Origin: a virus | Length of the DNA stretch: 64,000 nt | Reading direction: 5' to 3' (one strand) | Virus record (IMG/VR): IMGVR_UViG_3300012943_000031 | Coordinates: 42,837 to 106,836 of that record | Shown: positions 10,143 to 10,368 of the stretch, piece after piece | Numbering within the stretch: position 1 is the first letter of the stretch | Layout: each line of letters starts with the position of its first letter | Notes under the pieces: model-generated | The model's input: only the letters and a program-made list of their open reading frames with translations | Database searches by the model: none | Told to the model about the DNA's origin: nothing | Position numbers and translations under genes: made by a program

Positions 10143-10368
10143 AACAACCATAAACTATCGAGTTACAACTTGCTGGGTACTTACTGGGTACTTGCGGGGT
10201 GTAATTAGGAAACTCAGCACATCTCTGCTTAAAATGGGAGGACTAGCAATCCGTTATTACCAAAGAGGATGAAACTCAAACAGACTAAGAAGGTGAGCAG
10301 TTCTATGAAGTCGGGTTAGAGGATTAGACAAATGATAGTTGATACAGAAAGCTGGTTATTGGGTTGTT
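10143..10368 (+). ncRNA. rnpB: Minimal RNase P RNA
   Basis: P1 AACAACC/GGTTGTT, P2 AACTATCG/TGATAGTT, P3 hairpin, CR-I AGGAAACTCAGC pairing with CR-V ACAGAAAGCTGGTTA (P4 with bulged U), CR-IV TAGACAAATGAT. Confidence 0.8.

Follow-up and report, generated by a model that had tools for sequence, protein, structure and literature searches.

A 64,000-nt stretch of viral DNA (hereafter, the window) contains a miniature RNase P RNA gene inside a tRNA array. The window spans positions 42,837 to 106,836 of the IMG/VR virus record IMGVR_UViG_3300012943_000031, which is 106.8 kb long, and the gene is at 10143–10368 of the window (+ strand, 226 nt). Together with its relatives from other large phages, it represents a structural class of RNase P RNA that is distinct and borne by viruses. 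Comparison of the sequences leaves very little doubt that the element is a homologue of RNase P RNA and that it is under selection. It is of the bacterial type A and has been cut to its catalytic domain, and we think that it probably acts as the phage's subunit for processing pre-tRNAs. Few ribozymes are universal, and RNase P RNA is among them; as far as we know, its gene has so far been regarded as exclusively cellular.

In bacterial RNase P RNA, the catalytic domain (C-domain) includes P1/P4/P5, P2/P3, P6/P15/P16/P17, and P18, and it holds the conserved regions CR-I, CR-IV, and CR-V; the specificity domain (S-domain) holds CR-II and CR-III and touches the tRNA at its D and T loops (PMC4919922). 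By these definitions, the phage RNA is a type A C-domain without P18, plus a stub. We consider it to be of the bacterial type A because it has the P6 pseudoknot and a P15–P17 arm with GGU.

The ends of the element are set by P1, which has seven Watson-Crick pairs that can be read from the sequence (10143–10149/10362–10368). We derived P1 independently, and it gave the same boundaries as the original prediction of an RNase P RNA, 10143–10368. These boundaries and a match to our covariance model R1 (described below) confirm that prediction, and a weak match to the Rfam family RF00373 lies in the same place. No ORF of 60 amino acids or more overlaps the element. P2 (10153–10159/10334–10340) also has seven pairs, with two double substitutions relative to L022, the nearest relative. 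In the MFE fold, P3 is an unusually long hairpin (10161–10206). The length of P3 varies across the family; its shortest forms are 3 bp with a GNRA loop. CR-I, or J3/4 (AGGAA), and the 5' strand of P4 together occupy 10207–10218, with CR-I, AGGAAACUC, at 10207–10215. P4 (10211–10218/10351–10357) has seven Watson-Crick pairs, with U10214 bulged. P5 is at 10220–10223/10268–10271. The P6 pseudoknot joins a UGCUU 5' strand to a partner in the loop of P17 (10226–10230/10295–10299).

The S-domain is replaced by a 28-nt stub at 10235–10262. In the window, this stub has a P7-like stem of 3 bp (10235–10237/10260–10262) around one hairpin (10240–10242/10250–10252), and it carries conserved unpaired GAG and CGUU..AC. 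The stub is followed by the J5/15 adenosines (10272–10274), of which the AA at 10273–10274 aligns, in a relative, with the GCAA of RF00010; in the window, the C of this GCAA is replaced by A. The P15-P16-P17 arm (10275–10321) has P15 at 10275–10277/10319–10321, P16 at 10283–10286/10309–10312, and P17 at 10289–10291/10302–10304, as well as the GGU of the J16/15 loop at 10314–10316. CR-IV (AGACAAAUG) is at 10326–10334; like CR-I and CR-V, it aligns with the consensus blocks of RF00373 and RF00010. As there are only 4 nt between P15 and CR-IV, there is no P18 in the window. CR-V (ACAGAA) is at 10344–10349, or 10344–10357 with the 3' strand of P4. All of these features are on the + strand. Helices P1–P4 and regions CR-I, CR-IV, and CR-V had been described as recognisable, and every one of them could be placed.

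At Rfam's gathering thresholds, the window has matches to tRNAs only and no match to an RNase P RNA. Because Rfam misses these RNAs at its curated thresholds, the family is unannotated. In a permissive Rfam scan of 1.1 kb, the element matched RF00373 (Archaeal RNase P) at 10179–10358, with 19.9 bits as compared to a gathering score of 84. The E-value of this match, 0.002, is valid only for the 1.1-kb search. The blocks that were aligned in the match are exactly CR-I, CR-IV, and CR-V.

Using blastn, we compared the window to the phages in GenBank, and one place inside the element matched, in the uncultured 642-kb phage LR756502.1. Three pairs in the P4 of LR756502.1 differ from those in the window, and both sides are changed in each of the three. 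We also ran two pattern scans against IMG/VR. One pattern was anchored on CR-I, CR-IV, and CR-V, and the other was anchored on the P17 loop, CR-IV, and CR-V; a script then demanded a complementary P4. The two scans together yielded 36 distinct elements, all with 6/6 pairs in P4 and the bulged U. By chance, we would expect about 0.3 such passes among the roughly 110 matches to the first pattern. Two candidates from the first gapped pattern, L119 and L120, were chance matches within coding sequence and were rejected. A scan of viral contigs for a 15-mer of CR-V was also discarded, as it gave over 117 unspecific matches.

To model the family, we did not use the MAFFT alignments (A1–A3), because the varying length of P3 led to the scrambling of P1–P3. 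The covariance model R1 was built from 14 related phage elements; it describes nested helices only, and both the window and L022 were left out of it. R1 matches the window's element at 106.1 bits (E = 4.8e-27), and neither the 64-kb window nor the full 106.8-kb record has another match. The global alignment to R1 starts at 10178, with the 5' part of the window's element misplaced into a long P3, so we assigned the window's P1–P3 by hand. A covariance-model search had been named beforehand as the check for the original prediction. The outcome was mixed: there was no match at Rfam's gathering thresholds, and there was a match with permissive Rfam scoring and with R1.

On the loci that we fetched, R1 has 54 matches (49 distinct) with scores of 52–197 bits, and the 735-kb record LR756501.1 has a copy at 116 bits. 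The most divergent members that we found are the window's element (106 bits) and L022 (73 bits), as compared to 100–197 bits for the others. The elements are 180–250 nt long. They are found in a crAss-like phage (the window) and in phage genomes of 642 and 735 kb, the largest that have been published. When we compared a typical member to the phages in GenBank, blastn found uncultured huge phages only, with no cultured carrier.

The prediction that the RNA is phage-encoded also held up. The window is from a virus record, and a neighboring ORF (14905–19509) contains a Crassvirus muzzle-protein domain (PF25731). Giant ORFs of 1,678, 3,158, and 2,076 amino acids lie downstream of the muzzle ORF (27513–48744). 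Because of the muzzle-domain ORF and the giant ORFs after it, we consider the carrier to be a crAss-like phage. Among ten neighboring proteins that were compared to PHROGs, only an exonuclease and an endolysin domain were recognised. Apparently, the carrier phage is from soil: among public sequencing runs, the only full DNA match is a soil metagenome, which is the likely source. None of the public runs is an RNA run that contains the locus.

We examined covariation in a model-derived alignment of the 49 distinct sequences, with P4 and P6 added by hand as pseudoknots. Standard pairs are found in 94.4% of cells, as compared to 65% with shuffled 3' partners and 32–40% when the pairing is slid by 1–3 columns. 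Across these sequences, 46 of the 51 pairs have double-sided changes, and 0 of 500 shuffles reached any of the observed measures. The alignment was fitted to the nested helices, which favors those helices, and P4 and P6 are outside the model. The held-out P4 is 97.7% paired, with double changes in 6/7 pairs, and the held-out P6 is 95.8% paired, with double changes in 4/5 pairs. In one member (L231), P6 is formed by a different, unrelated stretch of 8 nt that pairs with its exact complement (8 bp). As for the nested helices, P1 is 85% paired across the family and 9/9 pairs covary; P2 is 95% paired and all 5 of the variable pairs covary; P5 is 100% paired and 4/4 pairs covary; and the helices of the P15-P16-P17 arm are 98–100% paired and 9/9 pairs covary.

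Since the search patterns demanded CR-IV, CR-V, and the P17 loop, the invariance of these three is in part built in. The second pattern did not ask for the AGGAA of CR-I, the bulged U of P4, the AA of J5/15, or the GGU loop, and these are 96–100% conserved (98–100% for the AA and the GGU). The GGU is absent from every search pattern. At the CR-I, CR-IV, and CR-V positions, the window does not differ from the family. Of the 55 positions with a conservation of at least 93% among the other members, it has retained 51. The two sides of the closing pair of P3, which is C-G in the family and A-U in the window, account for two of its four deviations. Relative to L022, there are at least 6 compensatory pair changes, in P2, P5, P6, and P15. 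The 51 positions that are kept and the compensatory changes relative to L022 imply that the window's copy is a maintained gene and not a relic.

A decaying, functionless relic of a host rnpB that was acquired by a phage would account for the large deletions relative to bacterial RNase P RNA and for the Rfam scores below threshold. However, the same deletions are common to the 49 distinct sequences, which are from unrelated large phages, and compensatory substitutions are pervasive. Also, the window retains nearly all of the invariant positions, and the complete genomes have a single copy of the element. Covariation contradicts the relic hypothesis, and we consider it to be hardly credible. The MFE of the window's element is not better than that of shuffled sequences (z = -0.54), as is common with AU-rich RNAs that contain pseudoknots, and this result is hence uninformative. 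A side observation concerns L022, in which the sequence that stands in for P3 (8392–8408) is complementary over 17 nt, with one G-U, to the hairpin of the stub (8442–8458). This could mean an alternative fold or a loop-loop contact, and it has no counterpart in the window.

The relatives also link the family to the bacterial type A RNA. The better-preserved ones match RF00010 (class A) over positions 1–367, with 45–61.5 bits and E-values of 2e-16 to 7e-11, where the gathering score is 100. Other relatives have their best match to RF00373, at 26–51 bits, where the gathering score is 84. Neither the window nor any relative reaches the gathering score of RF00010 or RF00373. In the alignment of one relative (L256) to RF00010, we found P1, P2, P3, CR-I, P5, the GCAA of J5/15, P15–P17 with CGGGU, CR-IV, and CR-V, in the canonical order. 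About 140 S-domain positions of the model correspond to about 31 nt in L256, and the 24 positions of P18 correspond to 0 nt. CR-II and CR-III of the S-domain are absent, and neither P18 nor the P13/P14 elements of type A are present. The stub in the window and the alignment of this relative bear out the claim that most of the S-domain has been lost.

These results also bear on the possibility that this is an unrelated structured RNA of phages whose likeness to RNase P RNA is due to chance or convergence. The window's own Rfam match is weak, as this explanation would have it. But the relatives match RF00010 end to end, with all of the helices and regions of the C-domain in canonical order, and the P6 pseudoknot, which is specific to type A, is present and covaries. 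Both the covariation and the end-to-end matches contradict chance or convergence, and we give this explanation a negligible probability.

The phage RNA has the same C-domain, in the same order, as the bacterial type A RNAs (RF00010), such as the M1 RNA of E. coli (rnpB) or the RNase P RNA of T. maritima. It differs in having a stub of about 28–31 nt in place of P7–P14 with CR-II and CR-III, in lacking P18, and in being encoded by phages with no rnpA alongside. It is also much shorter, at 180–250 nt across the family, whereas a typical bacterial RNase P RNA is 340–420 nt (PMC4919922). The reduced length that had been claimed for the window's element, 226 nt, is correct by this comparison.

The element had been likened to the archaeal type T RNA. 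The minimal RNA of Pyrobaculum (type T/P) is a natural RNA with a catalytic domain only, from which nearly the whole S-domain is missing (Lai et al. 2010, PMC3012483, as cited in PMC4919922). The two are similar in size and in the near-complete loss of the S-domain, but the Pyrobaculum RNA is cellular and archaeal and works with archaeal proteins. The analogy is probably valid for the outcome of the reduction only: the core of the phage RNA is of the bacterial type A, with P6, P15–P17 with GGU, and matches to RF00010. Within the Rfam clan CL00002, for which only the best family is reported, the phage RNAs match RF00010 or RF00373 best and never type T. The phage and Pyrobaculum RNAs look like independent, convergent reductions, with a likeness that is probably one of outcome and not of lineage.

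The 28 tRNA genes of the window form an array (5212–10638) that lies entirely on the + strand. The prediction that the element is inside a tRNA operon was accurate: tRNA-Leu(taa) (10063–10142, +) ends 1 nt upstream of it and tRNA-Ser(tga) (10371–10462, +) begins 2 nt downstream. Terminator-like hairpins are found before and after the Leu-Leu-RPR-Ser-Ser-Tyr block (9951–9974 and 10675–10696, both +). The spacers between adjacent tRNAs are often just 2–11 nt, so the leaders must be very short. A CCA end is encoded in only 8 of 26 tRNA genes (5212–10557), and many others are followed by CA. The downstream tRNA-Ser(tga) is unusual in that it has a 4-bp T stem, a T-loop of UUGGACU, and no GG in the D-loop. 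It was found by ARAGORN at a relaxed threshold only and was missed by Rfam and by ARAGORN with default settings.

It had been suggested that loss of the S-domain might allow the processing of neighboring tRNAs with aberrant D and T loops. In fact, 27 of the 28 tRNAs have the canonical elbow (GG in the D-loop and UUCRA in the T-loop), and the downstream tRNA-Ser(tga) is the sole exception. Because the elbows are canonical in the other 27, this rationale is unsupported.

The association with tRNA genes extends to the rest of the family. Same-strand tRNAs are on the locus for 39 of 48 family members. In 21 of the 48, there is a same-strand tRNA within 20 nt of the element, and 9 of the 48 are flanked on both sides. 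The other 27 have no tRNA within 20 nt, and on some of the fetched loci there are no tRNAs at all. For example, in the 642-kb phage (L001), no tRNA lies within 1.5 kb of the element.

The proximity of the tRNAs raises the possibility that the RNA acts in cis within the precursor, either as a scaffold that recruits the host's RNase P or other nucleases, or as a single-turnover ribozyme for the downstream tRNA. Besides the 21 members with a tRNA 0–20 nt away, it fits with this idea that the sole aberrant tRNA is 2 nt downstream of the window's element. On the other hand, the 27 members without such a neighbor, including L001, still keep the full conserved core, and there is a single copy of the element for 20–30 tRNAs. 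We consider a cis-acting element to be very unlikely.

In our preferred explanation, in which the RNA processes the phage's pre-tRNAs, any protein partner would have to be found elsewhere. As had been noted for the window, there is no rnpA: we found no match to PF00825 (RnpA) anywhere in the 106.8-kb record, the window included. Similarly, PF00825 has no match in five huge-phage records, four of which are 98–100% complete. The other carriers are contigs of up to 527 kb, and the four among them that are complete or nearly so (405–527 kb) have exactly one copy of the element each.

Based on the comparative evidence, it is rather likely that the element is an active RNase P subunit. The mini RNA would be co-transcribed with the flanking tRNAs and might be freed by the cuts that mature its neighbors. 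The freed RNA would then be the catalytic subunit that takes the 5' leaders off the phage's pre-tRNAs, which are polycistronic and closely spaced, and its protein cofactor would probably be the host's RnpA. We propose this mechanism because the elements of the catalytic core and for substrate docking are kept, the isolated C-domain is active, and the family is linked to tRNA arrays. Specifically, the C-domain of a bacterial RNase P RNA cleaves pre-tRNA by itself, with or without RnpA, at a reduced rate and with reduced affinity (PMC4919922).

Some observations count against this explanation. The GGU loop, which reads the CCA in type A RNAs, is conserved, yet few of the tRNAs in the window encode a CCA. 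We also count against it the sub-gathering Rfam scores, the divergence of the window's element and L022, the 3-bp P7, the replaced C in J5/15, the MFE, and the effect of the search patterns on the conservation of CR-IV, CR-V, and the P17 loop.

The main rival is that the RNA is a decoy for RnpA or for the substrate, an idea that was raised for the RNase P-like RNA of camelpox virus (PMC3001073). A core that binds RnpA and the substrate could titrate the host's RnpA or pre-tRNA without productive catalysis, and this would remodel or shut down the maturation of the host's tRNAs. Since there is no phage rnpA, any protein partner would be from the host, as a decoy would require, and loss of the S-domain lowers the affinity for the substrate (PMC4919922). 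However, these phages bring along 20–30 tRNA genes whose products depend on RNase P, and a block would therefore harm the phage. Also, positions that serve chemistry and docking rather than the binding of protein (the bulged U of P4, the AA of J5/15, and the GGU loop) are 96–100% conserved. And the camelpox RNA brought the activity of RNase P down by only 20% and was considered to be unable to sequester the proteins in vivo (PMC3001073). A decoy seems quite unlikely to us.

A more elaborate version of our preferred explanation is that the RNA is a device for taking over the host's RNase P. The host's RnpA would be captured into a phage-specific RNase P, which would have given up reading the tRNA elbow and would process the phage's own dense, short-leader, and mostly CCA-less arrays. 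Such an enzyme would work despite the shut-off of the host's rnpB or the degradation of host RNA, and the host's enzyme would be starved of protein. We view this as a speculative and rather unlikely idea. If true, the phage enzyme would be the smallest natural RNase P of the bacterial type and the first ribozyme of the translation machinery that is encoded by a virus.

The activity that we propose for the phage RNA is analogous to the cleavage of pre-tRNA by engineered RNase P RNAs. Bacterial RNase P RNAs that were engineered to have the C-domain only or to be "minimal," as well as the RNase P RNA of Mycoplasma fermentans, are described in references 30 and 75–77 of PMC4919922, as cited there. 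The engineered forms are laboratory constructs, and the M. fermentans RNA is cellular and still has an S-domain. In contrast to the engineered RNAs, the phage form is natural, conserved, and virus-borne, and it has a conserved stub of its own.

The camelpox (orthopoxvirus) RNA is the only other virus-encoded RNase P-like RNA that we found in print. Unlike the phage RNA, it belongs to a virus of eukaryotes and is similar to the nuclear H1 RNA; its effect on RNase P was small, and the discussion of it concerns a role as a decoy. In contrast to the phage RNA, it has no link to viral tRNA genes and is not part of a broad, covarying family. Our full-text search of the literature, which covers subscription journals incompletely, found no description of an RNase P RNA that is encoded by a phage. 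The term "RNase P" is absent from the large-phage papers that we searched, including a review from 2026.

Large phages have a repertoire of genes related to translation that includes tRNAs, tmRNA, synthetases, and ribosomal proteins, and this RNA would add a ribozyme to it. A virus-borne form with only the C-domain would also be a natural experiment on the minimum RNA for RNase P in a bacterial setting. And it raises the question of why a phage with 20–30 tRNA genes would have its own processing enzyme.

We also searched one genome per prokaryotic species for members of the family. The strong matches were only on short contigs (0.5–23 kb) of metagenome-assembled genomes (MAGs). Six of these contigs have strong matches to the family, at 97–160 bits (L338, L296, L307, L370, L320, and L386). 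Their MAGs are classified as Planctomycetia, Methanosarcinales, Bacteroidetes, Saccharofermentanales, and Algoriphagus. These contigs are probably phage DNA that was mis-binned into the MAGs. The same scan gave three weak matches, at 23–37 bits, one of which spans about 340 nt; we presume that these three are ordinary cellular RNase P RNAs.

Some other features of the carriers are worth recording. A tRNA with a CUA anticodon (an amber suppressor, which ARAGORN labels as "Pyl") is at 9099–9171 of the window, and four other carriers have a CUA tRNA as well (L022:3715–3787, L236:6112–6186, L247:3246–3318, and L264:4924–4996). We saw no sign of TAG recoding in the window, which contains late genes: ORFs of at least 250 amino acids are the same under translation table 11 and with TAG read as glutamine. 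At 59564–61503 of the window, adjacent ORFs have a collagen triple-helix repeat and a subtilase (Peptidase_S8) domain. Finally, two carriers have tmRNA genes within the tRNA array that contains the mini RNase P RNA (L271:1020–1389 and L277:1678–1956), and in L255, a weak tmRNA-like match (2217–2300) abuts the mini RNase P RNA.
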